Shown here: positions 5,264 to 59,679 of the stretch, one piece after another | Numbering within the stretch: the first letter of the stretch is position 1 | Layout: every line of letters begins with the position of its first letter | Assembly (NCBI GenBank): GCA_965198175.1 | Contig: OZ240245.1 | Location: 480,001-544,000, forward strand | From: Candidatus Poribacteria bacterium | GTDB taxonomy: Bacteria; Poribacteria; WGA-4E; PCPOR2b | Reading direction: 5' to 3' | DNA: 64,000 bases | Made by a program: the position numbers and the translations under genes | The notes under the pieces: generated by a model | Databases searched by the model: none | What the model was told of the DNA's origin: nothing | Seen by the model: the letters and a program-made list of their open reading frames with translations, nothing else

Positions 5264-5322
5264 CAGCTTACGTACTTGAGAAGAAGCTGAGAAAATCTCT
5301 GAGTGAAATTTTAGGAGCAGTT

Positions 5323-32619: not shown

Positions 32620-34818
32620 TTGAAACCCCAACTTATATATAGTATACTTATATATAATAGTAAAAAATTGCTTAAACTTTGTTTCTGTAACGGAAAGACG
32701 TTGGGCTGTATTCAAGATCGTCCAGTTCGAGACATATTAACAGAGAAATTAGCGTTGTGTTCCTTAGGGTGGGTGGAAGCTGTTGACACCGCTTTGGTGG
32801 ATGGTGCCGCTTTTCAAACTGCGCTCAAAGCGACTCAACTCTGGCTCGCAGGCAACTATAGCCGCGCTGACCGGCTTTTACAAGGCGAAGATGTAAGTTA
32901 TACCATTGTGACCGACGCCGACACGTTAGCATCGGTCACACCGGCGCTTGAACGAGCCGATGTGATTGCGATTGACACCGAGACCTATGCACCGGATGAT
33001 GTCCGATTCGATTTCGAGTGCGCTCATGATCGTTTTGCGCTGTTGACTCAGGAATTTGAGCGTGTTAGAGAATTCGCTAAACGAGCAAAGGGAGAGGCTG
33101 AAAAGCGTGCTATCCGCATGGTACGCGATACTATCAAACAGGAATGGAAAGCTGCAAAAGCGAAACTCAAAAGTACGGAAAGCGCCCTCAAACACGCAGG
33201 GCTCGACTCGCATCAGGCGAAAGTCCGACTGATTCAGTTGGCGATCGAAAATCGAGCGGTAGCCATGGTCGATCTAAATGCCTTTGATGATATGCTAGAC
33301 CTTGAGCCTCTGCGTAGGATATTGATGAACGATTCCATTAAGGTGCTTCACAACGCGAATTTTGACCTCCAGATGCTCTGGTCAATCGGTCTTGAAATCG
33401 GGGGGAACATCTTCGATACGATGATAGCGGCGAGGTTGCTCAATCCGAAGGAGAGTGCTGCTTTAGATGACGTTGTCAAGCAGTACTTTTCTGCAGGCTC
33501 AAGGCAGGCGCTGTCGAAGGCTGAGCAGTTGAGCGATTGGAGCGGCGATTTGACTGATTCGCAATGGCTCTATGCTGCGCGCGATGTGTCGGTACTTTTG
33601 CCACTACGAAAGCGGCTTAAATCCGAGTTGATTCGCGAAAATCTTACCCAGATTGTCAAGATTGAGTTTGACTGTGTGAGAGCAACTGCGGAGATGGAGT
33701 ATGTAGGAATGAAGGTTGATTCCGCTAAAGCAGACACCTACCGACGTCGCGTCGAAGCCCAAATGGCAAAACTTCGATCAGCTTTATACGGTTACCTGGG
33801 CGAAATCAGTCTGACCAGCCCAAAACAGCTCAAAATGGCTTTCGCCGGAATCGGTGTCGGTGTTGAGAGTACAGCTAGACGCGCGTTGTGGCAATTGACT
33901 GCGGCGCATCCGAGCATACCGCTGTTGTTGGCGTACAAGAAGCTATCCACCCTAATATCCGTCTGCCTTGAGCCTCTGCCCCGATGCGCTTCTACCAAAA
34001 CCGGTCGTGTCCATGCGAGTTATTGGCAGCTTGGCACCGCAACGGGGCGATTTTCCTGCTCGGGTCCAAATTTCCAGCAGGTGCCTCGGGACTTGGACGT
34101 ACGGGCTTGTTTTGTCGCTGAAGAGGACAATAAACTGGTCATCGCAGATTATTCACAGATTGAGTTGCGGGTTGCAGCAGAAGTCAGCGGAGATCGGAAA
34201 ATGACTCAAGCTTACCAGAACGGTGAAGATCTACACACGTTAACCGCTTCGCTGGTTCAAAAGATACCGCTTGAGGAGGTGACCCCCGAACAGCGTCAGG
34301 CAGCTAAAGCGATTAACTTCGGTTTGATTTTCGGGATGGGTGCGAAAGGGTTGAGGTACTCGGCGAAGCAGAATTACGGCGTGGAAATGACTTTGGGGGA
34401 AGCAGAGACTTTTCGGAATCGCTACTTCGAGTCATATTCGGGAATACGAGCGTGGCATCGGAGGTCCGGATGGGCTTTAAGGTACACGAATGAACAGAGA
34501 ACCCTCTGTGGTCGGCGGTTCGTCTGGGACGAAGCGGCTTCGTTTACAATCTTTATTAACAGGCAGGTACAAGGTACAGCAGCCGACATTATCAAGATTG
34601 CGCTGTCTAAGCTGATATTCGCTTTGAAGGACACCGGGGCGAAAATCATCGCTATGATTCACGATGAAATCATCATTGAAGTCTCTCAAGCCAACGCTGT
34701 TGAGGCAGCTCGGGTCCTGCAAGAGACGATGGAAGCTGCAGGTAGAGAAGTTCTAAAGAAGGTTCCAGTCGTGGCAGAAGCCCGCATCGCTGACAGTTGG
34801 GCGGAAAAGAAAAAATAG
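32620..34818 (+). CDS. Family A DNA polymerase with 3'-5' exonuclease and no 5'-3' nuclease
   Basis: ExoI DTET, ExoII HNANFD, ExoIII YAARD, motif A DYSQIELR, motif B RQAAKAINFGLIFG, motif C HDE; true start probably downstream of 32620. Confidence 0.9.
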   Translation: MKPQLIYSILIYNSKKLLKLCFCNGKTLGCIQDRPVRDILTEKLALCSLGWVEAVDTALVDGAAFQTALKATQLWLAGNYSRADRLLQGEDVSYTIVTDADTLASVTPALERADVIAIDTETYAPDDVRFDFECAHDRFALLTQEFERVREFAKRAKGEAEKRAIRMVRDTIKQEWKAAKAKLKSTESALKHAGLDSHQAKVRLIQLAIENRAVAMVDLNAFDDMLDLEPLRRILMNDSIKVLHNANFDLQMLWSIGLEIGGNIFDTMIAARLLNPKESAALDDVVKQYFSAGSRQALSKAEQLSDWSGDLTDSQWLYAARDVSVLLPLRKRLKSELIRENLTQIVKIEFDCVRATAEMEYVGMKVDSAKADTYRRRVEAQMAKLRSALYGYLGEISLTSPKQLKMAFAGIGVGVESTARRALWQLTAAHPSIPLLLAYKKLSTLISVCLEPLPRCASTKTGRVHASYWQLGTATGRFSCSGPNFQQVPRDLDVRACFVAEEDNKLVIADYSQIELRVAAEVSGDRKMTQAYQNGEDLHTLTASLVQKIPLEEVTPEQRQAAKAINFGLIFGMGAKGLRYSAKQNYGVEMTLGEAETFRNRYFESYSGIRAWHRRSGWALRYTNEQRTLCGRRFVWDEAASFTIFINRQVQGTAADIIKIALSKLIFALKDTGAKIIAMIHDEIIIEVSQANAVEAARVLQETMEAAGREVLKKVPVVAEARIADSWAEKKK

Positions 34819-35984: not shown

Positions 35985-38900
35985 TCACTCGTCCGCTGCT
36001 ACGGGTAGCCCGATGAACAGCCGGCTGTCAACATCCGCAAGTGGATCAACTTCGCCGGTTGCAGCGGCGCGGGCGAAAACGACGCCGGGGTGTTTTGCTC
36101 GCATCGCACGCACGAGAACGGTGAACCCTTTTGCTGCGCTGCCGTTGCGTAATTCCCATTCTATCCGTTCTCGTTCCAAATTGAGTCGAACAATTCCCTC
36201 CCGCAAACCGACGCAGAGCGGGTAAAGTTCTTCTGGCGTTAGACCGTCGCTATATCCGTGCCGAACGATGACATCTCTACCTCGAATGTCTGGAACCGAC
36301 CCACGCGCCCCGACGCAACAAGCGAGTCGATGAAGTCTACTATGTGCGTCTTGGCTTTTTGCTGCAAGGATGTGCGGTCCCAAGTTGTTGTCTCCGAAAT
36401 CGCTGCAGGCGGCAAGCCACTCGACAAGCTCTTCTGCATAAGCGTTCCACGCAGGTGCATCGTCGGGTTCTGCCGGAACGGATGGACTGCCGACGGTTTT
36501 ACTGATAAACGCGCTCATGGAGGCTCCCGATTCTTTGGCAATTTCGAGCCCGCGCTGCATCAGACGTTCGGCAACTTCAATCGTGCGATTTATTCCATCG
36601 CGTTTGAGAATGGCTTCCAGTGCCTGAGCTAGCGAAACTTGTCTAATTAAACCGTCAGGGGTGGCGATGTCGGTTCCGACAATCTCTGCGATTTCGCTGC
36701 GCCCTTCAGGGGTGAGACTCAGATGCGCCAGTCCCCACATTGCATCATGCCCCGGTGCGAGTGCTTTGTATAAATTTGGGTCGTGCTTCAGATGCCCCGC
36801 GATGGAAAGCCGCTCACCAGCTTCCCGTTGTCCGGCTTCAGTGATTGGGAGAAAGACCGCCGCTTGATCGCCATCGAAATTGGCGTTCATCAACTCACAC
36901 ACGAAAGGATGCACGCGGATAACACGGTCGGGGTGCCGCACCGGATGGAACGCAACAAGGTGAGTGAGTGTGTGCGCCGGCGGACGAAGCACAATCACCC
37001 ACGAACGCGCCATCAGTTCATCAAGGGCATGTGTTGCTTGTTGACTGCGTCGCCGTACTTCCCCGGCATCACCGAGCCTCTTTGTGATATGATGTCCAAA
37101 GAGTGCCCACGCCATCTCCTCCGGAATACCGACCTGATCAGCGCGTAACTCTGCGCCAGGCGCAATGACGGCGCGTCCGCTGAAGAGACTCCGTGCCTTA
37201 AAGTTCATGACGGTTGGGCTTAGGATTGCATTGACATATTCCGCAACGCGGATTTGGAGTTGCTTGATGGTTTGGCGGGTTAAACTCTCCGGTGTATTAC
37301 TGGCAAGCATCCGTTCGGTCCTGGTATTGACATCGGCAAGCGCCTGATATTCAGGCATGTCTTCACGGACGCCGACTTCATCAAGGATTTGATCGTGGAG
37401 CCACGGATGAGGAACGGGTTGAGCGAACTTGAGCGTATTTCCGTTCGGTCGTGCAAATCCAAAAGTCACCTTGTCGCCGCAAAGTTTAGTTCGGATTCCC
37501 ACCGCCGAGAGCCGATTCGAGAGGTCAGCGAATAACGGCGTCGGCGGACCCGCCTGTTCAACTTCTCCCCTTGCGACGCGCTCCACTAATGTATGCGCAT
37601 CCGTCCGTTTCATGGCACGGGTGTTAAAATGTTCCCGCAATGTTTCAAGCACTGAAGCATTTCGTAGTCTATCGTATTCAAGTTCACCAAGAGTCTGATG
37701 GTGCCTATGGTCTTCAAGATTGGTTGAGTCGGATGCTTTTATTTTATCTATGGCGATGTGAGCCAGGCGTCCCCAGTACACCCAACCGACTGTGCTGGGT
37801 CTTACCAGCTTCTTACCGTCCCGCCCAAGTGTGAGGTATTCCATTCCGTCTTCCGGAAGCCCTGCGTTCTTGAGGCGTTCGCGCAATTCATCTGCGCTCG
37901 GTGCATGGAATGGCGGCACGATGGCAGGTTTCCCTTCCGCTCGTGCGATGCGCCCCGTCACCGCTTCTCGTAATTGACCAAGGTTCATCCGCTCGTGCAA
38001 GCCCCCGAAACTGAAAACGAGTTCAACCGGTGTACCATCGGCGAGATGCGGCATCTCATCGTCAGGTAAGATGCGCGAAACAACCCCTTTCGTTCCATGA
38101 CGGTTGCCAATCTTATCGCCGGGTTCAACGGCATAAGGAAAATTCAGACGCGCAGCGCACGACTTGCTAATCACGATGCCGTCTTCGAAGGTATCGCCGC
38201 CCCATGAAATAAAAGCGGTCAATAGGTTGCGACCGCACCAAAAGTCAGATACATCCGGCTCGTAACCCGTTTGGACAAGCGCAGTCTCCGGAGCGGCAGC
38301 TAGCCTCGGCATCTCTTTGGTTAGGTGTGTTAGAGCTGTCTCCGGGGTTGAAGGCGCCATGCACTGACGCATCATGTTAGCCCCCATAAGTATCTGTGGA
38401 GGGTCATTGTGTTCAAGAAAAGGAATCATCGACGATGCTAAACCGAGGCTTGCTTCGGGGTTTTCATCAACCACGACCAATTTTCCATCGCGAATCTCGG
38501 CACCCCTAGCAATCGTAAGGATTCGACCTACGCTTGGTCCCTCCGGCGTTTCAAAAGGGCAAGTTCGCCCGAAGTGGGAAGAGGTGAATACCTTCTCGCG
38601 GTTCAGAACCAATAACCGTCGGAGATGCGTATACTTGTCAAGCCAATTGGTTTCTTGAAGTATCTGCGCGTAAAATGTGTCACGAAAGAATTCCTCTATC
38701 CATTTATCAAGTTGGAGCCATGACCGTACAGGGGCTGCTTCCCACGACAAGTCTAGGGGGGCACCCTTCAAACGCTCTTTGAAATAACTATGCAGTTGTT
38801 CTCCAACACATCTAATTTTCGCCTTTTTAAGTTTATAGGTTGAAGCCGTTGGAACAACGACATAGTTTTCTCCGCCGATTTTGAACATCCCTTCCTCGTC

Positions 38901-39104
38901 CGGCTGTGGGATGTCGGTGTACTCGACTTCAACGTTGCCATCGGTTGACGTGAGGGAGATTTTGATACAACCGGTGTAGATGCCGGTGGGTTCAAAGTGA
39001 TAGCCAGCTACCGGCAATTGCTCTGCGAGCAAATCTGGCAGCCGATTGTTCGTCAGTTGGTCAAAAGATTTTTTGTGCCAAAATGCAGTGATGTTGTTTG
39101 ACAT
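35985..39104 (-). CDS. Miniature single-chain RNA polymerase beta-beta' fusion protein
   Basis: RpoB motifs GRTCPFETPEG, IPFLEHND, MGANMMRQ, FEDGIVIS, GDKIGNRHGTKG and RMNLGQ, then RpoC motifs SGRAVI, NANFDGDQ and DGLTPEE; GAGGAGG SD. Confidence 0.9.
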   Translation of the reverse strand: MSNNITAFWHKKSFDQLTNNRLPDLLAEQLPVAGYHFEPTGIYTGCIKISLTSTDGNVEVEYTDIPQPDEEGMFKIGGENYVVVPTASTYKLKKAKIRCVGEQLHSYFKERLKGAPLDLSWEAAPVRSWLQLDKWIEEFFRDTFYAQILQETNWLDKYTHLRRLLVLNREKVFTSSHFGRTCPFETPEGPSVGRILTIARGAEIRDGKLVVVDENPEASLGLASSMIPFLEHNDPPQILMGANMMRQCMAPSTPETALTHLTKEMPRLAAAPETALVQTGYEPDVSDFWCGRNLLTAFISWGGDTFEDGIVISKSCAARLNFPYAVEPGDKIGNRHGTKGVVSRILPDDEMPHLADGTPVELVFSFGGLHERMNLGQLREAVTGRIARAEGKPAIVPPFHAPSADELRERLKNAGLPEDGMEYLTLGRDGKKLVRPSTVGWVYWGRLAHIAIDKIKASDSTNLEDHRHHQTLGELEYDRLRNASVLETLREHFNTRAMKRTDAHTLVERVARGEVEQAGPPTPLFADLSNRLSAVGIRTKLCGDKVTFGFARPNGNTLKFAQPVPHPWLHDQILDEVGVREDMPEYQALADVNTRTERMLASNTPESLTRQTIKQLQIRVAEYVNAILSPTVMNFKARSLFSGRAVIAPGAELRADQVGIPEEMAWALFGHHITKRLGDAGEVRRRSQQATHALDELMARSWVIVLRPPAHTLTHLVAFHPVRHPDRVIRVHPFVCELMNANFDGDQAAVFLPITEAGQREAGERLSIAGHLKHDPNLYKALAPGHDAMWGLAHLSLTPEGRSEIAEIVGTDIATPDGLIRQVSLAQALEAILKRDGINRTIEVAERLMQRGLEIAKESGASMSAFISKTVGSPSVPAEPDDAPAWNAYAEELVEWLAACSDFGDNNLGPHILAAKSQDAHSRLHRLACCVGARGSVPDIRGRDVIVRHGYSDGLTPEELYPLCVGLREGIVRLNLERERIEWELRNGSAAKGFTVLVRAMRAKHPGVVFARAAATGEVDPLADVDSRLFIGLPVAADE

Positions 39105-39204
39105 TTTGTCCTCCTCATCTTATTGGGTATTTCGTGTTGTGTGAGTGGTGATGTGTAAAGCATAACACGTGACGTGCGGGAATCTTCTCCGCCCCCTTGT
39201 TCAC

Positions 39205-39873
39205 TTAACTATCTTCCTCGTATTCGCCTGTAATCTCCTTCCATTCTTTAGCGAGACGCCTTATCGAATAGTGTAAACGCGACTTCACAGTGCCTTCCGG
39301 GATGCCAATCTCAGCGGCGACCTCACGAAGGTTCATCTCTTTCTGATATACAAGGTGAAGCACCTCTCGTTTATCTTCGGGCAGTTCTTCAACCAGCCGC
39401 CAAAGCAAATTAGACTGCTCAGCTTGTTCCAGCATCACATCGGGGCCACGTAACGATGTGTCAATCATCCAATCTGGGTCGGGCACATAGTCGTCCGCAT
39501 CATCAAAATCATCCGGCGGTATTTCGAGGGGATGTTGCTTCCGCCGACGCAGGGTGCGCAGGTAATTAAGGGCGAGATTTGTAGCGATGCGGAAGAACCA
39601 TGCTTTGAAATTACCTCGACCCTCCCACCGCTCGGCGGAAGTCCAAATTCGCAAAAATGCCTCCTGAACCAAATCCTCGGCTGCACTTTCGTCCTGCACG
39701 ATGCGTATGATGTGTCTGCGGACGGACTCGCTATATCGTGCCCAAAGCGTTTCAAATGCCGCCGCATCGTGTTCACGGATCTTATCAATGAGAAATTGAT
39801 CGGATTGTATTATAAATGTCCCTCCGCTCACGGAAAAACCAGCTTTCGTTCGGCGATTTTTGGGTTCGCGCAC
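39205..39873 (-). CDS. ECF-subfamily RNA polymerase sigma factor
   Basis: AEDLVQEAFLRIW and WFFRIATNLALNYLR (region 2); EVAAEIGIPEGTVKSRLH (region 4); start uncertain. Confidence 0.93.
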   Translation of the reverse strand: MREPKNRRTKAGFSVSGGTFIIQSDQFLIDKIREHDAAAFETLWARYSESVRRHIIRIVQDESAAEDLVQEAFLRIWTSAERWEGRGNFKAWFFRIATNLALNYLRTLRRRKQHPLEIPPDDFDDADDYVPDPDWMIDTSLRGPDVMLEQAEQSNLLWRLVEELPEDKREVLHLVYQKEMNLREVAAEIGIPEGTVKSRLHYSIRRLAKEWKEITGEYEEDS

Positions 39874-39943
39874 CTCAATTGCTGGCGAAAGGCGGGGTAA
39901 TGGATTATCCGGTCAGCCTCCATTCAGGAGACTTACATTGTAA

Positions 39944-39970
39944 ATGACACCGCAAGGGATTAATAAGTTC
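39944..39970 (-). promoter_or_regulatory. sigmaE-type ECF promoter, likely autoregulatory
   Basis: Minus strand reads GAACTT-attaatcccttgcggt(16)-GTCAT, about 70 nt upstream of the ECF gene. Confidence 0.65.
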
Positions 39971-40153
39971 ACAAGTTGAACGAAAAATTCAGCAGAACGT
40001 TGGTTGAGCGGGAGAACAAGGCGAGATAAAAGACGAAAGCGTTACTTATGTCGGTCGGTGAGAAAAACTGTTTGACACAATATAGGTTATTGTGCAATAA
40101 TGGTTGATGCCTGCCGAATCTATTCTAACTGAAAGCTGAAAGAAAATCTTCAG

Positions 40154-48514: not shown

Positions 48515-50017
48515 TTACACGCCAGCCATTTGTGCTTGAAGTGGGTCCAACTGACCCTCGGTTGGCTCCGCTCAGCAGTACCACGGCTCGGTTATTCGCG
48601 GCACTTGGATTCGACTGGGCTGGCAGGTACGCTGTGCGGGACCGGGACGTGACTCACCTCGCATTTTTGCAGCAAGCGCCCACACCCTGTAAAAGATATC
48701 TACTTCGTCCTTACCCGCTTGTAAATCCCGTTCTACCAACGAACTGACAATTTTATGGAGTTCATCCATGCGGAAATCGGGGTGAGTCCATTTATAGCTA
48801 AAAGATGCATGGTTGAGCATTCCAAGATGAGGCTTCATAGCAGTGCATTCAAGCAGAATGGAGCCGGGCGGAATCAGCAGCCGAATCGCGTATTGTACCG
48901 GAGCTACATGGTCAATGAGACTGTGTTTTTGGAGAAATTCCAGCACCTTGATGTAGTCGTCCAAGGTAGTCCACGGTGTGAACATGACCCAAGTCGGACG
49001 AAGTGCAATGCCAGTGTCTTGGACAATCTTGAGTGCCTCAACGACATCTTCTCGCCTGTGACCTTTATCCAAAATCTTGAGCACGGTGACGCTAAGTGAC
49101 TCCACTGCGGAGATTACAAACAAGCAGCCTGACGCCGCCAGTTCGGGGAATATCTTGCGGTGCTCTAGAATATGCTCGATTTTGGCAGTAAAGTCGAAAG
49201 TGAGTTGCGGGAATTCCGCATGCATCGCACGGATAATACGCAGCGAGTGTGTTGGACCGTTTAAGAAGTCGGGGTCCCCAAAAGTCAGATGGGTTGCCCC
49301 GGCGCTGACCTGCCTTCGGATGTCCTCAAGTACGATTTCCCGTGGAATTACAAAAAAGCGTCCGTCGTAGACCGGCGGAATTGGACAATGCGTGCAGAGA
49401 TGTACGCAGCCCCGACTTGTCTCAACGTAACCGGCTACGCGGTGATTACCATTGTGCTCCAAATGAGCATACTTTTCAAGCGGCGGCAGTGTGTTACGGT
49501 TTGGGATAGCGAAAGATAATCGTCGGAGGAAAGGACGTGCTTTTTTGCCGGGTTGAACAACACCCTCCACCGGAGAGGCGAGTGTTAAGTGGGGGGTGAT
49601 GTCTCGTGATTGCAATTCAATCGCTTCGACGAGCGCGGTGAGAGGTCCCTCGAACTCACCGCCGATACAAAAGTCCACACCGTGTTCCAGCAGGTATTCT
49701 GCGTTCAGAACCGCGTAAAGACCATAGAGGCAGATAGTCACCTCTGGATTGATTTTTCGAATGCGTCGCACGACATGGACACCCAGCCGCAAAGCAGTGT
49801 GCATCGGCACTGAGATGCCGATGAATCGAGCTCGCTCAATCTTCGCTGTGTCGAATGCCTCAACCGCAATGTCCATCGACTCGGGTGCAAAACCGGCATC
49901 TTCCAAAATTCCTAGCGGCAGACTAATTCCGTGTGGTTGGTGTCCAAGTTCGTAACAGGAGATTAGCAAGATCGCGCCTGGTGACCGTATGCTCATTTGA
50001 ACTCTCTCTTCTACCAT
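48515..50017 (-). CDS. CUAEP-tail B12-binding-domain radical SAM selenoprotein; TGA 48574-48572 read as Sec
   Basis: CVHLCTHC radical SAM motif, ISCYELGHQP; read-through gives TEPWYC-U-AEPTEGQLDPLQAQMAGV-TAA. Confidence 0.9.
48543..48557 (-). promoter_or_regulatory. Candidate bacterial SECIS hairpin
   Basis: GGGTC-AGTTG-GACCC, starting 14 nt after the UGA. Confidence 0.6.
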
Positions 50018-50570
50018 TTTCGTCTCATGCCAGGGTTTATTATTACGTACGCTATTACTACTCCGAGTTTTTCAGCTATCGCTCCGTTGGTGTCGGATGT
50101 TGGGTATTTTAGGAGTGCGACCGAACCTCCTCTTTCATACATGGCGGAAATCTGCCAAAAGTGAATAAGGTCGCACAGCGTCCTACTTAGGCACCCAAGC
50201 ATACTTTAATTATAACATAGATTTTGTGAACGCCAGGCGAAAAGTGGCGAGCATCTCGATAAAATCGTAACTAATCCTAGGTAAAATGGATGTAGATGCC
50301 AAACTCACGCCATGGGTACTCTTGCTCGTCTGCTTCTGTATAATCAAGTGCGGTGTGATGGCTATCCTAGCGGAGTATTTAGTGCCCTCGTCGTCGAGCA
50401 CAGTTTCCTGAACCCGCACAACCATCGTTTCCACGACTCTAGTCCTTTTGCTTACTGCACGCGTAGCGTTGAAACGCATTCTGAAAGAATTCCTCCCACA
50501 CGATAACACGTTTTCTTGGACAACATCTTGCAAAGTTGTAGCGTTTTCTCATTTGAAAAGTGGTGCTATT

Positions 50571-51437
50571 TCACCTACTAAAACAACCGTCAATCAGGGC
50601 GTATGCAACGCCATCCCCATTTTCAATTTTATACTTATCACACAGGTTAGGGATGACTTCGTTGTGGGCATCTAGTAGGTAAAAAGCGAAGTGTTTACAC
50701 AACCCCAGGTCAGCTTCGCTTTGAGAGTCATTTGTGTCGAGATTACCATCCCAAAGGGTTTTGAAGTTTTCATGATTTATCCATTTACCTGATAACCAAT
50801 TCCCCGTGATTTCTCTTATAGCAGATTCAGGTATTTTTATCTGAGTATCAGCATGCTCAGTTTCAACAGTCTCCTCAGTTCTTACTTCTGAGGTATCAAA
50901 CGCTTCACAATCTGGATTGAAATAGAAATAATTATCAATGGTGTAAAAGCATAACTGTACAAGGGCTTTTGCTTTACATACTTTGATACCTAAGTTTATC
51001 TCTTTTGAGATGTGTTTGTAGACAAACGGATGGGTCTTTTTATCGGTGGGCTTGTCTATCTTGACGAATACTTTCAGCCCCCTACCACTGAGCGAGACGA
51101 TTATGGCATAAACATAGGGTAATTGTGATAATTGATGTTTGAAATGGTCAACAGCATCGCCCAAGTTGTCGTAGTCTAAACAAACTATTAGGCTGTGTGG
51201 ATCGGGAGATTCGCTGTTTCTAAACTTCAATACACCAGAAGGGATAACCGCTGGAATCAAACGTTCTCGGGTTTCTCTGTATGTCTCTTTATCTTCTGGG
51301 GGTATGTCCCGAACTAATCGGATGCGGTCTTTAATTTTAACTGAGAATCGTTGGGCTATAATCGCGTAAAGGAGGGTTTTGTGGGCAAGGTTTGTATCAC
51401 GTACAGATGTAAGAGTTGAAACTTTTGGTGTATACAT
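50571..51437 (-). CDS. BT4734/VirE-N-like primase-type protein with helical C-terminal domain, possibly truncated
   Basis: LIPAVIPSG, VCLDYD, SLSGRGLKVFV, SQSEADLGLCKHFAF. Confidence 0.65.
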   Translation of the reverse strand: MYTPKVSTLTSVRDTNLAHKTLLYAIIAQRFSVKIKDRIRLVRDIPPEDKETYRETRERLIPAVIPSGVLKFRNSESPDPHSLIVCLDYDNLGDAVDHFKHQLSQLPYVYAIIVSLSGRGLKVFVKIDKPTDKKTHPFVYKHISKEINLGIKVCKAKALVQLCFYTIDNYFYFNPDCEAFDTSEVRTEETVETEHADTQIKIPESAIREITGNWLSGKWINHENFKTLWDGNLDTNDSQSEADLGLCKHFAFYLLDAHNEVIPNLCDKYKIENGDGVAYALIDGCFSR

Positions 51438-51657
51438 TTTATCACTCCCCCTACTTTCGTACTCCCTTTGGATTTTTAAAAGAGAGAGTCAAGGCAGGCT
51501 TCTCAAACCCACCTCAACCCTGAGAATTTTAATTTTGTGGGGAGCACAAAATGTAAGTAAACTATGTCAAGTGAAGCGTAAAATGTTCGGTTTATTTGCC
51601 TAAAATCGCTCAGGGTGCTTTCGTTTAGTCTCTTGAGTATCAAAACCCATTTGATAT

Positions 51658-51827
51658 GAACTATCGCACCTGTGGCGAATTTGGACGCTTGGATCACCTC
51701 CTCAGTGTTATGTACGTTTGATAGAGAAAATTTCAGAGTATTCAGTTTGTCGTAAATCTCCTATGCCTAACCCTTCCTCTCTCACAGCCCCATGAATAGC
51801 CCAAAATTGCCTCAGGTGCGATAGTTC
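51658..51827. repeat. 170-bp MITE-like unit with 27-bp imperfect inverted ends
   Basis: GAACTATCGCACCTGtGGCgAaTTTGG versus the reverse complement of CCAAAATTGCCTCAGGTGCGATAGTTC; related copies at 52954-52988, 53183-53194 and about 59401-59440. Confidence 0.6.
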
Positions 51828-51949
51828 CCTATGGATTTGTAATTTACCTATCGCTTGGAATTGAAATATGAGAGGAAATAAAAAAGGCGAGGGTTATTAG
51901 CCCCCGCCCTAATCGTTTATTCTGTAAACCCTTTTACATTGCAATGCGC

Positions 51950-52663
51950 TTAATCAATCCTCAACCATATCTTGATGTGTTCATCACCGACACGATCCCA
52001 ATGCTGCGGATAGTGTACATTTATAGTCCCTCCTTCTGCGTAGTCGAAACCGAAAACACAAGACTCGACCTTTTCTAAATTGCGCAGATTTTGCTTGGCT
52101 TGCTGATGCCAGTCTTGGATTTTGGATATATCTTCTCTCATGTGATGAATTGCGTTTCTATAGCTTCTCCAAATTGCCTTAGATGCTTCAGCAGATTCAT
52201 TGTTGAGGAGTTGTACCTTCCTAAGTTTTTCAATTGTTTCTGGGAGGTCTTCTTTGCACTCTCTAGCAATGTTATTTCTCTTTGCAGCAAACTTGATAAT
52301 TCCTTCGTTGATTGGGTGAGTCATCATGGTACAAGCTATAAACAAGCCAGCACGGTAGGTCTTTATGCACTCGTATGATGCTTTTGAGAAATGATGAGCA
52401 GCGATGATTTGGTTAGGTCTAATTTCGAAGTGTAACTTTATCCGCGATTTGAGAACGTCGCCAGATAGCGGTTGAAAATCGGAGTTGTACATGGCTTTCA
52501 TTGCCACTCGGAATTGCTGCTCACTGTTCATCCCTTTATAATACTCATCAAGCCCGTCATGTGACGCTAACACCTCCTGAACAATTTGCATTACCGTGAA
52601 ATCTTCTGGTCTTGGTTCAAAGTCTGAGTCTGAGGTTTGGGATTGTTCTTCAGTTTCACTCAT
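51950..52663 (-). CDS. Hypothetical protein with HEPN-like RxxxxH motif
   Basis: AGGAGA SD; alpha-helical; YRNAIHH. Confidence 0.6.
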   Translation of the reverse strand: MSETEEQSQTSDSDFEPRPEDFTVMQIVQEVLASHDGLDEYYKGMNSEQQFRVAMKAMYNSDFQPLSGDVLKSRIKLHFEIRPNQIIAAHHFSKASYECIKTYRAGLFIACTMMTHPINEGIIKFAAKRNNIARECKEDLPETIEKLRKVQLLNNESAEASKAIWRSYRNAIHHMREDISKIQDWHQQAKQNLRNLEKVESCVFGFDYAEGGTINVHYPQHWDRVGDEHIKIWLRID

Positions 52664-53239
52664 TGACTTTATCTCCTGCGTATTAGGACGTCTCCAGATT
52701 TGCTATGATTATATCCCGAAATAACCGCAGAGACAACCCTTCACAAGATAGAATTAGAGAATTGCGCAAAATTTGATGTACAGCATGTCTGGTTTGGGTT
52801 CAAGTGACAATCTCACCGATAAACTTGTTGCCCGCCTTTTTATTTTTACTCCAAAGCATACATCAAGCAGCCCCGCACGGTCACCCCCGCTTCGCCCACA
52901 GTTAGCACAGGTGCCTTAGTTGTGCCTACTCTCATTTCTCCCTAATATTGCCGAGAATAGCCCAAATTTCAATCAGGTGCGATAGTTCGGTTTTGGACAA
53001 AAATCAGACATAAAAAAAACGGGGTGGTTAGCCCCGACTTATGAGTCATGATAAATTTATCAGAGAGTAATATGAGATTACTACGGAAACGGAATAGGTG
53101 GCTTGTCTGGCAATCTGCCCTGTCAATTTCACTGAAGGGAATTCAAGATATATCGGATAGAACAACTGAATGGGGTAGGTACGTGCGATAGTTCTTGGAA
53201 TGGATCGAGTTCTTTCACCTTTAAATTGGTAGGGGATTG

Positions 53240-53701
53240 TCACTCTAACCTTGGTTCCAATGTCCATCCTTTTTCCGATGCAAGTTCGGCAAGAAGGTAT
53301 GTTAGTAATTCAAATGCTCGCCTTTTCTGGTTATTCGATACACAAACGCCAAGATTTGCAAAAATTATCGAGTGAGCAGGATTTTTTGGAGTGGGGTCAT
53401 AGATAATATCTAGGTCAATAACGAGCTCCTTATCGTGCACTTTGGTTGTCACTTCTTTTGATGCGCGAACATCGCGTGCTGTCAGACTAACAATCCCATC
53501 CGTTTCGCTTAACCGAGAGAGGGAGGGGTCATCTCTTAGTTTTGCCCTATCAACCGACGGCTTAAAATTTCTATCGGAGAAAGCTTTAGCACTTAAATTA
53601 AGATTTCCTTGTTTGTCGAGATAATACTCGTCATCTTCCAATCTGCCTCGTACGCTGCGATAAAGTTCCTCGTCATCCTTCACGTAGTAGTTGTTATCCA
53701 T
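53240..53701 (-). CDS. Small ART/RES-like protein (putative toxin)
   Basis: ELYRSV...AFSDR..PSVDR...DP...NPAHSII; overlaps the upstream gene. Confidence 0.6.
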   Translation of the reverse strand: MDNNYYVKDDEELYRSVRGRLEDDEYYLDKQGNLNLSAKAFSDRNFKPSVDRAKLRDDPSLSRLSETDGIVSLTARDVRASKEVTTKVHDKELVIDLDIIYDPTPKNPAHSIIFANLGVCVSNNQKRRAFELLTYLLAELASEKGWTLEPRLE

Positions 53702-54485
53702 AAAGAAACCATTCCCAGATTGTGAGATAGTCTTTGCTGTGAAGTGTTTCTAGACTCAATTTGATCTCACCATTCTGTCGCCATACTTTAACATATACCG
53801 CTTCGTCATCTTCGATTTTGAGATGAAGCTTCCGTACTTCTCCGTACCATGCAAATGTGATGTATCCGTCTTGATCGCTAGATGTCAGCGGCGTGTCACA
53901 CGCATACCCTTCAGAAATGACAACATCAAAAAATTTATCCATAATGGCTCTTGCATTACTTAAAGCTAGCACGCTTGGTTTCTTGGATTCGCGCCCATCC
54001 CAGTTATCTTCTCGTTTAGCAATAACGGCAAATCGCTCTGACAATTCAGCCAAGATGTCATTCTTGAGGTTGTGTTCCGAGTCTTTTTCTGTAGTCAGAG
54101 AATTCGTTATCAAACAAGTTGGATAGAATGCCCTGATGAGTTTCGATTGTGTGCCGATATAACGTTGCACAAGATGCCAATATGTTGGAAAATCAGTAAA
54201 GCTGACTATATCTACATCTGCAACAGGGAGCTCTGTTACCAACCAATGTGCAGAGTATTTTTCGCTGTCTTCTTGTTGAACTATGAAATCTTTTTTAATA
54301 TATTTCCTAATGTTTTCATGGTAGGTTCTACGGTTGAGCATGTGCCACGTACCCTTATCCTGTTCAACCGATTCTGATATATTAGGTCTAACTACCCTAA
54401 TATATTCTTGGTATCGGGTAAACTTGCCTAATGAAAGAAATCCTGTGTCGAGCTGAGCCGTAGCGGAAATACTTTCGTCTAGCAT
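53694..54485 (-). CDS. Hypothetical protein (NWDG...DGYITFAW family), middle gene of cassette
   Basis: Overlaps both neighbours; EDNWDGRESKKPS, DQDGYITFAW. Confidence 0.7.
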   Translation of the reverse strand: MLDESISATAQLDTGFLSLGKFTRYQEYIRVVRPNISESVEQDKGTWHMLNRRTYHENIRKYIKKDFIVQQEDSEKYSAHWLVTELPVADVDIVSFTDFPTYWHLVQRYIGTQSKLIRAFYPTCLITNSLTTEKDSEHNLKNDILAELSERFAVIAKREDNWDGRESKKPSVLALSNARAIMDKFFDVVISEGYACDTPLTSSDQDGYITFAWYGEVRKLHLKIEDDEAVYVKVWRQNGEIKLSLETLHSKDYLTIWEWFLYG

Positions 54486-55270
54486 GACTCTCTCCCCCAG
54501 AACCGATCTTGGGTTTCATCGCTTATGAGATTTGAAAAAAGTCGAACAATTTCCCCATGGGCAATGTCAAACCACTCTCGCATCGGCTCATACGGTTCGT
54601 TACTTTGTGCGGTGAACTCCATACGAATAAGTTGTCGAGCGTCGGATCGTCGGTGAACAGTCTGAATGGTCAATTGTAATTGCCCAAAATCATTTGGCAG
54701 ACTAAACAACATTTGCCATTGAAATTCTCTTAGGTGCCCTAGCGGTGCATCTTGGACATTTTGCGAGACGAGATTGGGGAACATCTCTCCCAAATTATTG
54801 AGCGATTCCCAACCTTCATGCTGTAAAATGTGGTCGAAATATGTTATCTCGTATTGCTTCGGAATAAGATCTTCCAACTTCTCCTCAACGAGAAATTCTT
54901 TGAAACGTGACAGATAATTCTCAAAGTTTTCTACCACTCTTTCATAACCTGGATATTCATCATCGGGGCGTCTCTTGCGCCAGTTATGAATGAATCGATT
55001 GAACTGTACTTGGACAACTTCGTTCACATCTTTGTGCACGAACCAAACCCGCGAAGGTAGGACCTGATTTCTTCTCTTCAAGTCCTCCTCAGATACAGGT
55101 TCAAGGGGGCTGTGTTCTTCAATTTTGGGAAAATCAGGTCTGAATTTCTGCCATAGCATGCCGAATTGCCCTGTGTGTAACCCCTGGATTGGATTGAAAA
55201 TGATACCGCAAACAATCTCATGTATGGGAGGGTTCTGATATTTAATGGCTGATGGTGCTGTTGTTTCCAT
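54479..55270 (-). CDS. TIGR04255-family protein
   Basis: YQNPPIHEIVCGIIF, RVWFV, QVQFNRFIHNWRK, YPGYE, WFDIAHGEIVRLF. Confidence 0.85.
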   Translation of the reverse strand: METTAPSAIKYQNPPIHEIVCGIIFNPIQGLHTGQFGMLWQKFRPDFPKIEEHSPLEPVSEEDLKRRNQVLPSRVWFVHKDVNEVVQVQFNRFIHNWRKRRPDDEYPGYERVVENFENYLSRFKEFLVEEKLEDLIPKQYEITYFDHILQHEGWESLNNLGEMFPNLVSQNVQDAPLGHLREFQWQMLFSLPNDFGQLQLTIQTVHRRSDARQLIRMEFTAQSNEPYEPMREWFDIAHGEIVRLFSNLISDETQDRFWGRESC

Positions 55271-55619
55271 TGTTTACTCGTACAAGAAGAATTATAACTA
55301 TATACTAAACAATCAGAATATTATATACAGTAAAGCATAAATGTCAAGCAAATTATGTCAAGTTTTTTTTCATCTGAATTCACACTTTGTGCCATAGTTT
55401 GTTGCATCACATATGCCATGATGCTCATTTTTTTTCAGATTACATGAAATCAACATCTCATGCAAACGCTCAGAGAGGTCGGTTTACAGCCCGCACAAAG
55501 CTCCCATATTTGTCACAGGAGCGTTAATTTTGGCTAAATACAGATGCCTTAAAAATTGCTGAGAATAGCCCTGTTTCCCCTGTACTGGAAGGTTTATCAA
55601 CATGGGATATATCACTAAG

Positions 55620-56063
55620 AGATTTGGTGTTGGAAAACCACAAAAACGGGAACGGGGAACGGAAAAAGGCTAAAGTTATCGGAGTAATTGAGCGGGGTGG
55701 AAGGGTTGTTGCTACAGTAGTTTCTGATTTGTCAGGTTCACAGATATTTAAGTTCATCACTAAACCTGTAAAAGTTAAAGAATCTGAGCTAATGTCTGAT
55801 GAATGGAGAGGGTAACTGTCAACCAAATCTATAATGCCGCATAGTGTGATTAAACATCAAGAGCGAAAATATGTTGACAGGGATATTCATACAAACACGA
55901 TTTAGGGATTCTGTGGTCGTTACTAAAGAGAGGTAAAAACGGGCTACATCATCATTACAGCAAAAAATATGCGCCGCTTTATATTGCTAGGGCGTGTTAT
56001 AAATACAATCGCAGGAAAGATGGAGATCTGTTCTATAAGTTTATGAGAGGTTGTTTTGGGTGA
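55620..56063 (+). pseudogene. Degenerate IS1595-family transposase remnant
   Basis: VIGVIERGGRV, ELMSDEW, MPHSVIKH, IHTNTI* with stops and frameshifts; related to 26552-27436. Confidence 0.85.
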
Positions 56064-56188
56064 TAAAAAAGGGGATAATTTACAATGGTATAATTCCCGA
56101 CAAAAAATCCAGAGATATAATTCTCTGGCTTATGTTTCAGTAGTGGTGACATAAATTGGTAATTTGTTTTATGTAATGACTTCCCTTG

Positions 56189-56401
56189 TTATGTTAACTC
56201 TGTTCCATCATTTAGTACGAACTCATCAAATGTGGTAAGTGAGTCTGTATTCTCGTGTGCTTTTGACTTTTGTTCTTCTAGAGCTTTGAGAAGTAAAAAA
56301 GGTTCAGTAGACAAAAAACTGCCTGTAGCAAGGGTGTACGTACATTCGATTATTGGTTTCTGTACAATGCGTAGGGACTTAACTTCCACTATTTGTGACA
56401 T
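56189..56401 (-). CDS. Small hypothetical protein (MSQIVEV...)
   Basis: GAGGAGG SD at the end of the upstream gene. Confidence 0.45.
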   Translation of the reverse strand: MSQIVEVKSLRIVQKPIIECTYTLATGSFLSTEPFLLLKALEEQKSKAHENTDSLTTFDEFVLNDGTELT

Positions 56402-56402
56402 T

Positions 56403-57210
56403 TTATTCCTCCTCAATAATGCTGCGCCCAAGTGGTTTTTTATAAATCCACTGGAATCCATCAAATGGAGTGACAAGAGCAATATCAATATGCCCTCCAA
56501 CTGTAGGCATTGTCCGAGAAAATCGCTGGTGTTCAATCGTTGTATGAATTAAAAACTCAGCATAGTCAATTGCATCTTGTAAAGCAAAACTACTAAAATT
56601 GGCTTGACTAGCAGGATTTTGTTTATATAAATTCCAGATAGCATGAACAATTTCATTGTTACCTGAAAATCCACATCCTACATAACTCAGTTTCTCTACA
56701 TTCAACATTACGCCCGATATTAACTTCAAATATTTTTGGGTCGGTACCATCATAACCAACAACTTGAGCTCCTAGAGGGAAACTGTTTGGCGATAATGTT
56801 TCTAAAGGCACATTCTCTTGTTTTAACTGTTTTATAAGGAGCTTATAGATTTCATCCCCAATTACCTTAGAAACTTCTGTAACATTTGTGGGCTTATACA
56901 TGTCCCCATTTAACACCCGATGTTCAAGTGAACGAATCGCAAAGTAAATGGATTTTCCAGCTACCAAGCCCATACCAAATGTACCAATGCCAAAGTTCTT
57001 GCAGAAAGGAAATACCTTTTGAGCATATGAGAACGTTGTCATTGGGACAGGAGGCAATGGTACATTATGTTGGATTTCATGCTGATGCTGACATTTTGGA
57101 CATGTTACATCGCTCGTACCTTGAAACTCAGTTTGTCCTATCATTGTTGATAGGCTATCCCCAGCAATTACAATACCATCAGGTACTATAAGGGAAACAA
57201 TTAGTGTCAT
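56403..57210 (-). pseudogene. Proteasome-like Ntn peptidase, frameshifted near 56690
   Basis: MTLIV...DGIVIAGDS N-terminus with Thr nucleophile; the GCGFSG...LQDAIDYAEFLI...TVGGHIDIA half is in another frame. Confidence 0.7.
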
Positions 57211-57349
57211 AATCTTAACGCCTTTTACTCGATTTCACCATCGCTGGTATCAAACCGCCCACCCGTTAGTAGTGTGAACAGTCTACTATATCATTATACA
57301 CAGTTAAAAAAGACATTTCAAGGAAATGATGTCTTTTTCTCATAAAACA

Positions 57350-58393
57350 TAGGAGTTACGCATTTGGTTGAAGCGTAAAAAGAGGCTGCACCAAATAATC
57401 ACGGACAGCCTTTCTGACAATTGAGAGTTTTGCTTCAAACCAACTGGTGCCGGTATGATAACAGTAATGCTCAATTCTCAGAAAGGCTCTCAGCGCTAAA
57501 CCGATATGATTGCTTTGAGTGCGAGTCGACCGCACTTGTGCCCGTTCGACGCCAACGAATTGCTTAATGCCACGATGATATTCTTCTATTGCCCAAGACC
57601 ATTCCGTATATTTGAGACGTGTTAACTCGTTCATGTGTAAGTCGTTCGTTGCCCAATATTCAATGTCACCTTCTGGAGTGTCCACCTTGAATACCAAAAT
57701 CAATCCATAACCCTTAAGATGAACAATCGTACCCGTTGATTCAATCGGCACTGTACTTACAGGACGATTACCGGAATAATCTTTACTGACCCGTCGGTTG
57801 GCAGCTAGACGAGTCAGCCATCTCCAACCATAATCTCGGACGGCTTTTAGATTCTCTAGGCTAGCATACCAACTATCAAAGCAAAGACATTCGGGAACAA
57901 AGCCACGGTTCTTCGCTTCCGTCAGCATTGCACGGAAATGGTCATTTTTCGTCAAGCCGTCCTTGGCTTTGTTATAGATTCGATAATCACATGGAATATG
58001 TCTATCGCCATTCGTCCAAAGCAAAGTGATTAGGTTAATGCCATGCACAACTCGATGGTGTTTCCCCGACCAGTGTTTTGTCACTAGGTCAATCTTTTGG
58101 GAATAAGGTTTATCTAGGGTCGAATCATCTATAACTAGAATTCCTGATTTCAATTTCACCTGACTTTTTGATTCGTGCCACAGTTTGCCGGTATCGGGTT
58201 CATCTCGATGCAAAAGTCTGGTTATCGAATCATGAGCCGGTGAGTCATCAGTTTGGGGTTGAACCTTTTCTGCCTCAAGACAACTGTAACTTTTCTGAGT
58301 GCCAACCAAGAAATTGATATAGTCAATGTCATTATATTTCGATGGATTCATGCTCAAATTATAACCTATTTGCTCTCAACTGCGTAACTCCTA
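57350..58393 (-). mobile_element. Complete IS701-family element (transposase 57356-58357)
   Basis: LVIDDS, FDSWY, WAIEEYHRGIKQ; 13-bp TIR TAGGAGTTACGCA/TGCGTAACTCCTA; AAAACA direct repeat on both flanks. Confidence 0.93.
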
Positions 58394-58416
58394 AAAACAA
58401 TCAATTTATCTATATT

Positions 58417-59053
58417 CTAGTCCACACAAATCCACACAAAATTAACAGCATTCCAATCATCCGTGTAAAAGGAGATTGAAAGCATTCTCCCGTCCCATTT
58501 ATAAAGACCGACAAAATCTATAACTTCAAAATCGCTGTCTAAGTAAGACCCTATCACATCTCCGTCTGGTTCAACTGTGTAATAAGAGACATAAGTTTCA
58601 CCGTCAAGTGTTGTCGTCATTTTGTATCCGTCAATGACTAAATTTCCGCTTACTTCGGGTGGTGTTAGTTTAGTAACCCCCTCATCATTGCTCCAGAACT
58701 CAATCTCTACAAGCGTGTAGTTTCCCGATAGCTCACTATACAGTCTTTCTAAATCCTTATCAATTTCGGGTTCAACTATTGGCGTGTCATGTTCATGCTC
58801 AACAAATTTAGGCTGGTGTTCATGACTGATTAACTCATGAACATGTTCAATAAATTCGTGACTATGTTGATGCTCATGTGTTTCTAGTGGGTGTTTGTGT
58901 TCAGCTAATTCATGCTCATGTGTTTCTAGTGAGTGTTTGTGTTCAGCTAATTCATGCTCATGAGGCGCTTCGTCGTGTTCATGTTCGGTCAGCGGATGCT
59001 CATGGCTGCAACCCAAAAAAACAAACTAGAAAAATGACAGAAATAAACTTCAT
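58417..59053 (-). CDS. His/Glu-rich lipoprotein with lipocalin-like C-terminus; signal peptide out of frame at a T7 tract
   Basis: GGAGA SD and MKFISVIFLVC from 59053 join LGCSHEH only if one T is removed from the run at 59015-59021; 42-bp tandem repeat at 58870-58962. Confidence 0.7.
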
Positions 59054-59635: not shown

Positions 59636-59665
59636 TTGACAATGGAGCACGCCAATCAGTATAAT
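59636..59665 (+). promoter_or_regulatory. sigma-70 promoter of tRNA-Gly
   Basis: TTGACA-18-TATAAT. Confidence 0.8.
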
Positions 59666-59679
59666 TTATCAATTTCCGT

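Follow-up and report, generated by a model that had tools for sequence, protein, structure and literature searches.

To our knowledge, cellular RNA polymerases (RNAPs) are regarded as invariably large, multi-subunit enzymes, and their known miniature relatives are viral, prophage or plasmid proteins that lack sigma factors. This work deals with a two-gene module in a stretch of 64,000 nucleotides, here called the window, from a Candidatus Poribacteria bacterium (GenBank assembly GCA_965198175.1, contig OZ240245.1, positions 480,001 to 544,000 of the forward strand); positions given without a genome or locus label are counted from the first letter of the window. The module comprises a gene for a sigma factor of the extracytoplasmic function (ECF) type and, downstream of it, a gene for a single chain in which parts of the RNAP subunits beta and beta' are fused, called the mini-core below. 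An earlier reading of the letters alone (the sequence-only reading) had offered two explanations, a stripped two-barrel polymerase with its own sigma factor or an RNAP mimic that sequesters sigma, alpha or an antibiotic; the pairing with sigma stands, and the present data agree in part with a polymerase and in part with a mimic. We tentatively read the module as a dedicated sigma and mini-core pair, binding through the clamp helices; most members of the family would be active as minimal polymerases, and the copy in the window would be weakened or inactive.

The closest architectural analogue is K2ORF6p of the yeast killer plasmids, or virus-like elements (VLEs), described in the excerpts of PMC2919709 and PMC6211774 as a miniature beta-then-beta' fusion, a single chain of about 980 aa whose spacers are shortened. 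The mini-core has the same miniature order (Rpb2_3, Rpb2_6 and Rpb1_2 in 1039 aa), the two being likened by description. According to the excerpted text of PMC6211774, its authors report a viral origin of the VLE enzyme close to poxviruses, a second small subunit, K2ORF7p, with beta' C-terminal regions, a mode of action together with a capping enzyme and a helicase, and the probable absence of the clamp coiled-coil from K2ORF6p. The mini-core, in contrast, is of the bacterial type, keeps the coiled-coil region, has a sigma partner and is linked to no conserved third gene. Another single chain related to multisubunit polymerases is YonO from the SPbeta prophage of Bacillus subtilis, an active and processive enzyme of about 100 kDa with no detectable trigger-loop homology, whose sequence, by its authors' account, has hardly any homology to that of multisubunit polymerases apart from a few catalytic residues (PMC5467207, in excerpt). 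YonO is prophage-encoded and has no known sigma partner, whereas the mini-core is strongly homologous to beta and beta', chromosomal and paired with a sigma factor; neither K2ORF6p nor YonO shares its sigma partner or its bacterial chromosomal home.

Full-length beta::beta' fusions (NCBIfam models NF011417 and NF007172) have the same order in one polypeptide, and the mini-core matches them at 158.2 and 148.4 bits. Their cut-offs are 4632 and 5372 bits and their lengths 2839-2890 positions, so that the mini-core is about a third of their size; the full-length fusions are the only complete polymerase of their cells, while the mini-core is additional to a normal rpoBC. With the bacterial RNAP core the module shares clear homology in the barrels, the Mg loop, the clamp helices and the bridge-helix region, but the core has roughly 2700 aa in two chains against one chain of 1039 aa, and the module has no linked alpha or omega gene and lies away from rplL-rpoBC. 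Its ordinary-looking ECF sigma and its GAAC-type promoter, presumably self-activating, are likewise shared with bacterial ECF systems. ECF sigma/anti-sigma operons in particular have the sigma gene first, a co-transcribed partner downstream, often with stop/start overlap, and a self-activating promoter; in the module, unlike in them, the partner is a 1039-aa polymerase homologue without an anti-sigma domain. No such sigma partner is mentioned in the main texts of the ECF papers PMC7826278 and PMC8999054 or in one supplement of the former. The earlier statement that no characterised system resembles the locus agrees with the full-text literature searched, with subscription-only journals outside its scope, in which a bacterial miniature beta-beta' fusion with a sigma factor is not described; the two-gene module of ECF sigma and mini-core thus seems to be undescribed.

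Architecture of the mini-core

The mini-core gene occupies positions 35985-39104 on the minus strand (an open reading frame, ORF, of 1039 aa), and the sigma gene, with a longest ORF of 222 aa, positions 39205-39873 on the same strand. Both ORFs are present as the sequence-only reading had given them, and all the RpoB motifs followed by RpoC motifs that it had listed occur in the translation in the order claimed. Its further remarks on a distance of 100 nt from the sigma stop codon and on a strong Shine-Dalgarno (SD) sequence are likewise borne out, since the spacer (39105-39204, minus strand) contains GAGGAGG at 39110-39116, 5 nt ahead of the ATG at 39104. Mapping with hidden Markov models (HMMs), which that reading had suggested, places three Pfam domains in one chain: Rpb2 domain 3 (residues 147-204), Rpb2 domain 6 (148.2 bits, in two stretches) and Rpb1 domain 2 (residues 699-763). 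The two-barrel superfamily is marked by a double-psi barrel that binds metal through a DxDxD signature and a second one that has conserved basic residues; Rpb2_6 and Rpb1_2 are present and both barrel regions align to E. coli, the catalytic motif being DxDGD family-wide and NxDGD in the window. The NCBIfam models of complete subunits are matched below their cut-offs, TIGR02013 (rpoB) at 177.9 bits against 801.15 in three separate stretches and TIGR02386 (rpoC) at 76.5 bits against 963.5, and the bacterial models outscore the archaeal ones. A profile of the family matches solved bacterial chains with E-values of 9.9e-73 (beta) and 5.1e-50 (beta').

Alignment of the family profile with E. coli rpoBC as reference shows which parts are retained. 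In beta, residues 497-582, 652-707, 786-822, 1054-1148 and 1178-1342 are aligned; in beta', residues 263-316, 342-514, 593-649 and 680-795. In the usual domain nomenclature, these blocks correspond to the fork with the rifampicin pocket, both double-psi barrels, a part of the beta C-terminal clamp, the clamp helices, switch 2, and the funnel and bridge-helix regions. The stretch beta 823-1053, which we take to be the flap on which sigma region 4 docks, has no counterpart, and the blocks flanking it are joined by about 4 residues. The profile also aligns no counterpart of the lobe region, of beta' 1-262, of the rudder region (317-341), of beta' 515-592 or of anything beyond beta' 795. The N-terminal beta' stretch 1-262 is assumed here to hold the zinc finger, or zinc domain. 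For this stretch and the one beyond 795 (zinc clamp and trigger loop) nothing is aligned, although a short remnant may be present, and the last 56 residues or so of the mini-core are without assignment; the trigger-loop residues M932 and H936 named in the excerpts of PMC13198411 fall in the stretch beyond 795.

The beta-like half of the mini-core (residues 1-545; 37470-39104, minus strand) comprises the fork/rifampicin region, the 652-707 block, the beta barrel in both its halves and the C-terminus of beta. The AlphaFold2 model of the whole chain has a mean predicted local distance difference test (pLDDT) score of 90.8 and a predicted template modelling (pTM) score of 0.88. Structural alignment by residue range, which covered residues 1-545, matches this half to beta/Rpb2 chains of bacterial, archaeal and eukaryotic origin (Z about 30, over 435-524 residues, with a root-mean-square deviation of 2.4-3.7 A). 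Foldseek with the whole model returns only beta chains, with poor global superposition (template modelling score about 0.4).

The clamp helices of beta' are the main dock of sigma on the core enzyme. In the mini-core they are retained as a coiled-coil region (residues 583-633; 37206-37358, minus strand) aligned to E. coli beta' 263-316, in which the model has helices at residues 584-601 and 606-627; this region is a candidate dock for sigma region 2, the role that we assume for the corresponding stretch of beta'. Farther along the chain the model has a long helix of residues 957-988 (36141-36236, minus strand), a probable bridge helix: E. coli beta' 680-795, which we take to contain the bridge helix, aligns to residues 871-983.

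It is also worth mentioning that in the counterpart of the rifampicin pocket (residues 147-167; 38610-38660, minus strand) beta D516 corresponds to Q150 and beta S531 to L165. Both are classical rifampicin-resistance sites, and the fusion protein may be insensitive to rifamycins, as judged from these substitutions.

Linkage of the mini-core with the sigma factor

The 222-aa protein is a sigma factor of ordinary type, with Pfam matches to Sigma70_r2 (67 bits), Sigma70_r4 (47.3 bits) and Sigma70_ECF (32.6 bits). It passes the superfamily cut-off of TIGR02937 (127.2 against 42.9 bits), regions 2 and 4 are present, and the nearest solved chains are ECF sigmas (about 1e-33); none of the specific NCBIfam equivalogs reaches its cut-off, the best being PRK12515 with 129.3 bits against 236. 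The conserved protein begins near 39810, where the N-termini of relatives align from the QSD stretch, and the start codon is probably the in-frame GTG at 39831.

The start region shows some turnover (39805-39873, minus strand). Three relatives (L008, L009 and L010) have TTG and/or ATG after a GGAGG-like ribosome-binding site, where the window has TTT and ATA. The GTG at 39831 is not found in L010 and has no obvious ribosome-binding site, and may now act as the start; to judge from these codons, translation of sigma may be reduced in the window's lineage.

A scan of one genome per species yielded 47 loci with the fusion gene. The question raised by the sequence-only reading, whether the ECF gene is always adjacent, can be answered for these loci: in 45 of them a gene closely homologous to that of the window's sigma precedes the fusion gene in the same orientation, and the other two (L042 and L053) start inside the fusion gene and lack the upstream DNA. 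The stop codon of sigma overlaps or abuts the start of the fusion gene in several phyla, for instance in L024, L028 and L051, an arrangement typical of genes whose products bind each other. A third conserved gene (anti-sigma, alpha-like or omega-like) was sought among 1064 flanking ORFs of at least 90 aa, and none was found across clades; as each of the 15 most widespread clusters of flanking ORFs is confined to one clade, the pair is the only conserved unit. A scan of flanking genes turned up no anti-sigma domain, and the gene directly downstream of sigma shows only polymerase domains in Pfam and no anti-sigma domain. Resistance or biosynthetic genes conserved near the loci were not found either. 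In one locus from Poribacteria an 801-aa gene of the S9 family (prolyl oligopeptidase) lies on the same strand between the sigma and fusion genes (L040:3233-5638).

Within the phylum Poribacteria the fusion gene is present in 31 of 151 genomes sampled, with an uneven distribution (20/25 in family f1, 9/10 in f2 and 0/100 in f3). The sigma scores in the same genomes fall into two groups, 30 at E <= 1e-71 and the others at 1.6e-33 or weaker. Both genes occur together in 29 of the 151 genomes, and all exceptions are decayed or fragmentary; what the three genomes with a single one of the genes contain is a pseudogene, a remnant or a fragment. In G050 the fusion gene is missing and the sigma gene is interrupted by two in-frame stops (C1:5436388-5436933), in G061 a 159-aa C-terminal remnant of the fusion gene is all that is left, with no sigma orthologue (C1:2648683-2649147), and G084 has a sigma fragment without a fusion gene (C1:871425-871664). 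The fusion gene is split by three TGA codons in G093 (C2:821092-824204), and in G132, an assembly 79% complete, the copy is partial and contains one TGA. Thus, the sigma and fusion genes are lost together. Evolutionary distances of the two proteins correlate strongly (r = 0.92 over 276 pairs, a value reached by none of 2000 permutations); this is not counted as co-evolution, because shared ancestry alone gives much of it. The pairing with sigma is strongly supported by its occurrence at 45 of 47 loci, by the common loss and by the common promoter described below.

A physical partnership between the two proteins is likely, given their linkage, their common loss, the stop/start overlaps, the position of the fusion gene where an anti-sigma gene would be expected, and the retained clamp helices. 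A structure prediction with the ECF factor, one of the checks that the sequence-only reading had proposed, gave weak support. For mini-core residues 290-1039 against sigma, with separate alignments, the score was 0.52 (runs of 0.50, 0.55 and 0.52), compared with 0.00 for the highest of three controls; at least 55% of contacts recur between runs, and the partner has a pLDDT of at least 64. Of 157 solved complexes 116 pass the mark applied, as do 2 of 215 mismatched pairs; among passes with a score of 0.60 or under there are only 18 of the 157 solved complexes, together with both mismatches. As sigma and beta' are a textbook pair, the pass may only mirror likeness to solved holoenzymes.

A conserved promoter ahead of the module

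At 39946-39971 (minus strand), matching the promoter that the sequence-only reading had placed at 39944-39970, lies a motif shared by several phyla, an ECF-type core with the -35 element TGAAC at 39967-39971 and the -10 element CGGTGTC at 39946-39952, in GAAC-N16-GTGTC spacing. Upstream regions were anchored on a conserved sigma motif, and six loci not matched by the anchor pattern were left out. Each of the anchored regions (n = 37) contains exactly one GAAC-N16-GTGTC, with identical spacing in 36, and the consensus across phyla is TGAACyT-N12-cGGTGTC.

With a weight matrix from whose building the window's own site was excluded, this site scores 31.9 bits, and the next best site in the 4.92-Mb genome 18.1; most of the weaker matches checked in this genome overlap ORFs. 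When the matrix is applied to the 613 kb of the 47 loci, 40 of them show a strong site upstream of sigma and L029 a weak one, the scores at the 40 loci being high partly by construction, as the matrix was built from those sites. Elsewhere in the 613 kb nothing exceeds 15 bits except in L022, where the two genes lie about 700 nt apart (4527-5874) and a second full copy of the promoter, of 38.2 bits, stands directly ahead of the fusion gene; the ORFs between the two genes of this locus match no Pfam family. In four of five complete genomes of the sister clade the exact core pattern occurs at the module only. The fifth, G124, has one more match, which is within the background of 0-1 matches per genome given by the reversed pattern. 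No second strong sigma target was thus found in the matrix scan of the own genome or in the exact-pattern scan of sister genomes, scans that would miss weaker or differently spaced promoters. At the stringency used, the operon itself is the only detectable target of sigma predicted from sequence, so the pair would switch itself on.

Among the weak matches in the host genome (G000) are three nearly identical stretches of 40 nt (C1 1602757-1602796, 1726148-1726187 and 1901591-1901630). Two of them were checked and lie inside long ORFs of about 935-954 aa; the three probably belong to a family of large paralogous genes.

Contigs that match the module exactly, though over short stretches, come from four RNA-library runs; in three sponge metatranscriptome runs they lie on parts of the fusion gene, on a part of the sigma gene and on the junction 39062-39228. 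These RNA-library contigs, which have no strand, ends or level and may include DNA carry-over, hint that the module is expressed.

The active centre and its erosion in Poribacteria

In 49 aligned members of the family the residues D744, G745, D746, G329, D330, N334, R335, H336 and G337 are invariant. The beta-barrel motifs GDK..RHG.KG and ED are both present: residues 329-340 form the motif GDKIGNRHGTKG (38085-38120, minus strand), in which K331 and K339 are the counterparts of E. coli beta K1065 and K1073, and E307/D308 correspond to E813/D814. The catalytic loop of beta' is another matter. The sequence-only reading had listed NANFDGDQ among the RpoC motifs; the motif is there (loop NANFDGD, residues 740-746; 36867-36887, minus strand), but it is not canonical. 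Compared with NADFDGD, the first of the three Mg-binding aspartates, beta' D460, is replaced by N742, while D462 and D464 are kept as D744 and D746. In the excerpts of PMC13198411, beta' D460 is described as coordinating both catalytic Mg ions. DFDGD is found in 45 of the 49 members, and NFDGD in the window, its two closest aligned relatives and L038.

The asparagine is part of a wider drift. Conserved columns, 175 at a level of at least 95%, were defined on 93 sequences outside three clades of Poribacteria. The clade of the window's genus (clade N) deviates from them at a mean of 11.0 positions per sequence, with D742N in 4/4, R246C in 3/4 and R372L in 2/4 sequences. Its sister clade (clade B) has a mean of 4.7 deviations, mostly conservative, and a third (clade C) a mean of 13.1, with K331, the counterpart of beta K1065, lost in 5/7.

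Both genes are under purifying selection, as estimated from the sequences by the ratio of non-synonymous to synonymous divergence (dN/dS, or omega), which is about 0.2. The Nei-Gojobori estimates for the fusion gene are 0.18-0.27 for the genus of the window, 0.14-0.19 for clade B and 0.13-0.22 for clade C; those for the sigma gene are similar, and those for a dehydrogenase gene nearby are 0.07-0.13. Synonymous divergence in the genus reaches about 0.48, and the Asn variant has therefore been long maintained and is not a fresh lesion. Since Asn742 and the other changes of the active centre have drifted under purifying selection, the window copy is probably a weak or inactive polymerase, which would be kept for a sigma-binding or feedback role.

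Distribution and inheritance of the family

The module lies outside the rplL-rpoBC context, as the sequence-only reading had stated, about 4 Mb from the canonical rpoB-rpoC. The host genome is a single contig of 4.92 Mb, and the normal rpoBC that this reading expected elsewhere is found at 4.56 Mb, with rpoB at 1784.9 bits and rpoC immediately after it (G000 4564450-4568460).

In a word-indexed search that scored 8000 candidates, 1741 proteins matched at E <= 0.001. The top 120 of these 1741 relatives are 990-1106 aa long with 50-100% identity, and all of them contain Rpb2_6 and Rpb1_2; where their sources give a name, it is almost always 'hypothetical protein'. An exhaustive search of 1.84 billion cluster representatives (50% level) gave 502 matches at E <= 1e-30. 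About 65 of the best 150 representatives are full length (943-1101 aa), with identity down to 36%, and the shorter ones may be partial genes. The 47 loci come from Poribacteria, Planctomycetota, Chloroflexota, Armatimonadota, Latescibacterota and Hydrogenedentota, that is, full-length relatives are found in at least six phyla. In a maximum-likelihood tree of 24 members the Poribacteria stand on one side of a branch with a support of 99 in the Shimodaira-Hasegawa-like approximate likelihood ratio test (SH-aLRT). Six phylum labels require five changes on this tree, the possible minimum, and inheritance of the module therefore looks mainly vertical.

Full-length members were found neither in 50,697 phage records (36 matched, none at a query cover of at least 80%) nor in 72,556 plasmid records (68 matched, none at that cover), and the annotated matches in both fall on ordinary rpoB/rpoC. 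Viral contigs gave 315 relatives, in the best 80 of which no full-length member was recognised; these 80 show 21-36% identity over spans of 3.4-4.6 kb, or short segments only.

In a protein atlas several unnamed clusters of 1221-1787 aa join Rpb2_6 and Rpb1_2, some also Rpb1_5, in one protein. They are leads only, and other beta-beta' fusions of intermediate size may exist in metagenomes.

Weighing of the explanations

The architecture, linkage, promoter, selection and active-site changes are observed directly, whereas binding, catalysis and physiological output are inferred from them. Under the dedicated pairing of sigma and mini-core that we prefer, sigma would read TGAACyT-N12-cGGTGTC ahead of the module, making the pair self-activating, with the first round of transcription presumably performed by the host core enzyme. 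Region 2 of sigma would dock on the retained clamp helices, and in most of the family the two proteins would form a minimal promoter-specific RNA polymerase; in the window a weak or inactive polymerase may have been kept for binding sigma or for feedback. As the catalytic centre is conserved in most of the family, RNA synthesis appears to matter, and this favours a minimal holoenzyme. Somewhat less probable is that sigma and the one-chain mini-core by themselves make up a complete promoter-specific machine, about 140 kDa in size, that has no need of alpha, omega, flap or trigger loop.

Several observations speak against such a pair. The flap stretch beta 823-1053 is gone, and the dock of sigma region 4 with it. 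E. coli beta' R275, E295 and A302, which we take to be sigma70 contacts, are V592, T612 and R619 in the mini-core. The sigma factor itself has an ordinary ECF look, with an (S/A)AED motif in region 2.2, and bears no mark of specialisation for a mini-core; the spacing of its -35 and -10 elements is rigid, as expected from the geometry of the host core, despite the absence of the flap stretch, which fits a sigma working on the host core. If the module's own promoter is the only strong one, a holoenzyme formed by the two proteins would transcribe no genes but those that encode it, with no output visible. The active centre has been lost independently in two clades of Poribacteria at low omega, so that the protein can be maintained without a canonical centre, the prediction of binding is weak and covers residues 290-1039, and the support for expression comes from short RNA-library contigs that are possibly DNA.

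Some of these points suit a polymerase that is controlled by sigma but does not use it. In such a scheme sigma would act on the host core only, and the mini-core would be a promoter-independent effector like YonO or QDE-1, whose substrates under some stress would be single-stranded DNA, nicks, RNA templates or primers. The ordinary ECF features of sigma, the canonical -35/-10 geometry, the missing flap-holding stretch and the catalytic residues conserved in most of the family are all consistent with it; without a second strong sigma target the output would have to be the enzyme's own, and YonO, in the excerpts of PMC5467207, is a precedent for a processive chain of about 100 kDa lacking detectable trigger-loop homology. 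Such an enzyme leaves the retained clamp helices and the stop/start overlaps in several phyla unexplained, the erosion of the active centre in two clades is as awkward for it as for a dedicated pair, and the weak complex support (0.52 against 0.00) points mildly to binding, and we hold it to be rather unlikely. The same weak support, together with the clamp helices, also agrees with a beta' mimic, an anti-sigma-like decoy selected mainly for binding sigma, and possibly other RNAP ligands, through these helices; it would be a feedback brake on a sigma that otherwise runs away, with vestigial catalysis. The fusion gene occupies the usual anti-sigma position, the flanking genes scanned show no anti-sigma domain, some brake is required where a promoter activates itself, and D742N, R246C and the loss of K331 have occurred in two clades at an omega of 0.13-0.27. 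But the catalytic centre is highly conserved outside these two clades of Poribacteria, which a decoy of 1040 aa would not need; a far smaller protein would be enough to sequester sigma, and a loop of sigma and decoy has no output. For the family as a whole we regard a decoy as unlikely, with a higher probability for the window's copy. Conserved catalytic residues in most of the family favour a polymerase, and their erosion in the two clades favours a non-catalytic role there.

It is improbable that the mini-core serves as an inhibitor-insensitive back-up, perhaps with host sigmas, when an antibiotic or a phage protein blocks the main enzyme. The changes of D516 to Q150 and S531 to L165, at classical rifampicin-resistance sites, and the deletion of many surfaces used by inhibitors would agree with such a role, and the clamp helices could in principle accept other sigmas; yet with the flap stretch deleted and the beta' N-terminus unaligned, reading of ordinary -35/-10 promoters is unlikely, the dedicated sigma and the unique promoter argue for a private rather than a general system, the active centre decays in two clades, and no resistance or biosynthetic genes are conserved nearby. 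An artefact, whether an assembly chimera, a decaying pseudogene or a recent mobile or viral arrival, is hardly credible. Decayed copies do exist (G093, G061 and G050), and an IS1595 transposase gene lies about 8 kb away. Against this stand 47 independent loci, the roughly 65 full-length sequences in the best 150 representatives, an omega of about 0.2, a tree that follows the phylum labels, the lack of full-length members in the phage and plasmid records searched, and ordinary chromosomal neighbours. A chimera in particular is excluded because the same architecture occurs in 47 independent assemblies. The observations that, according to the sequence-only reading, would have spoken against the module, namely a lack of full-length homologues with the same deletions, a dN/dS near 1 or a chimeric assembly, were not made: such homologues exist, dN/dS is about 0.2 and there is no chimera.

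Neighbourhood of the module in the window

The neighbours of the module are ordinary chromosomal genes, encoding SMC, an M19 dipeptidase, a short-chain dehydrogenase, a family-A DNA polymerase and a transporter of the major facilitator superfamily (MFS). The gene of the family-A DNA polymerase (732 aa; 32620-34818, plus strand) lies on the opposite strand two genes downstream of the module. Its product has a 3'-5' exonuclease domain, a 5' nuclease domain was not detected by Pfam, and the gene is near the module only in the closest relatives. The IS1595 transposase gene (26552-27436, plus strand) overlaps the end of a gene with a KilA-N domain (27393-28202, minus strand). Farther away, at 50001-60000, the G+C content is 0.39-0.42, against about 0.50 in the rest of the window, and a tRNA-Gly(CCC) gene is found at 59680-59751; this low-G+C stretch may be an acquired island.

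Implications

If the dedicated pair is real, this single chromosomal chain of about 115 kDa, always accompanied by an ECF sigma and a promoter of its own, would demonstrate how few parts of beta and beta' are required when sigma directs initiation, and the machine of about 140 kDa would be the smallest known polymerase of the cellular type (two-barrel and sigma-dependent), present on the chromosome beside the normal enzyme in at least six phyla. The mini-core would put to the test the need for the flap, the trigger loop, the zinc domain and the alpha platform, and together with its sigma it would offer a compact orthogonal expression system. If it is a beta' mimic instead, it would represent a new class of sigma regulators derived from a polymerase. 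In some Poribacteria, on the reading preferred here, the mini-core would be turning into a catalytically dead partner of sigma, and two lineages of this phylum, which have independently lost catalytic residues although selection is purifying, offer a natural experiment in the passage from enzyme to pseudoenzyme.

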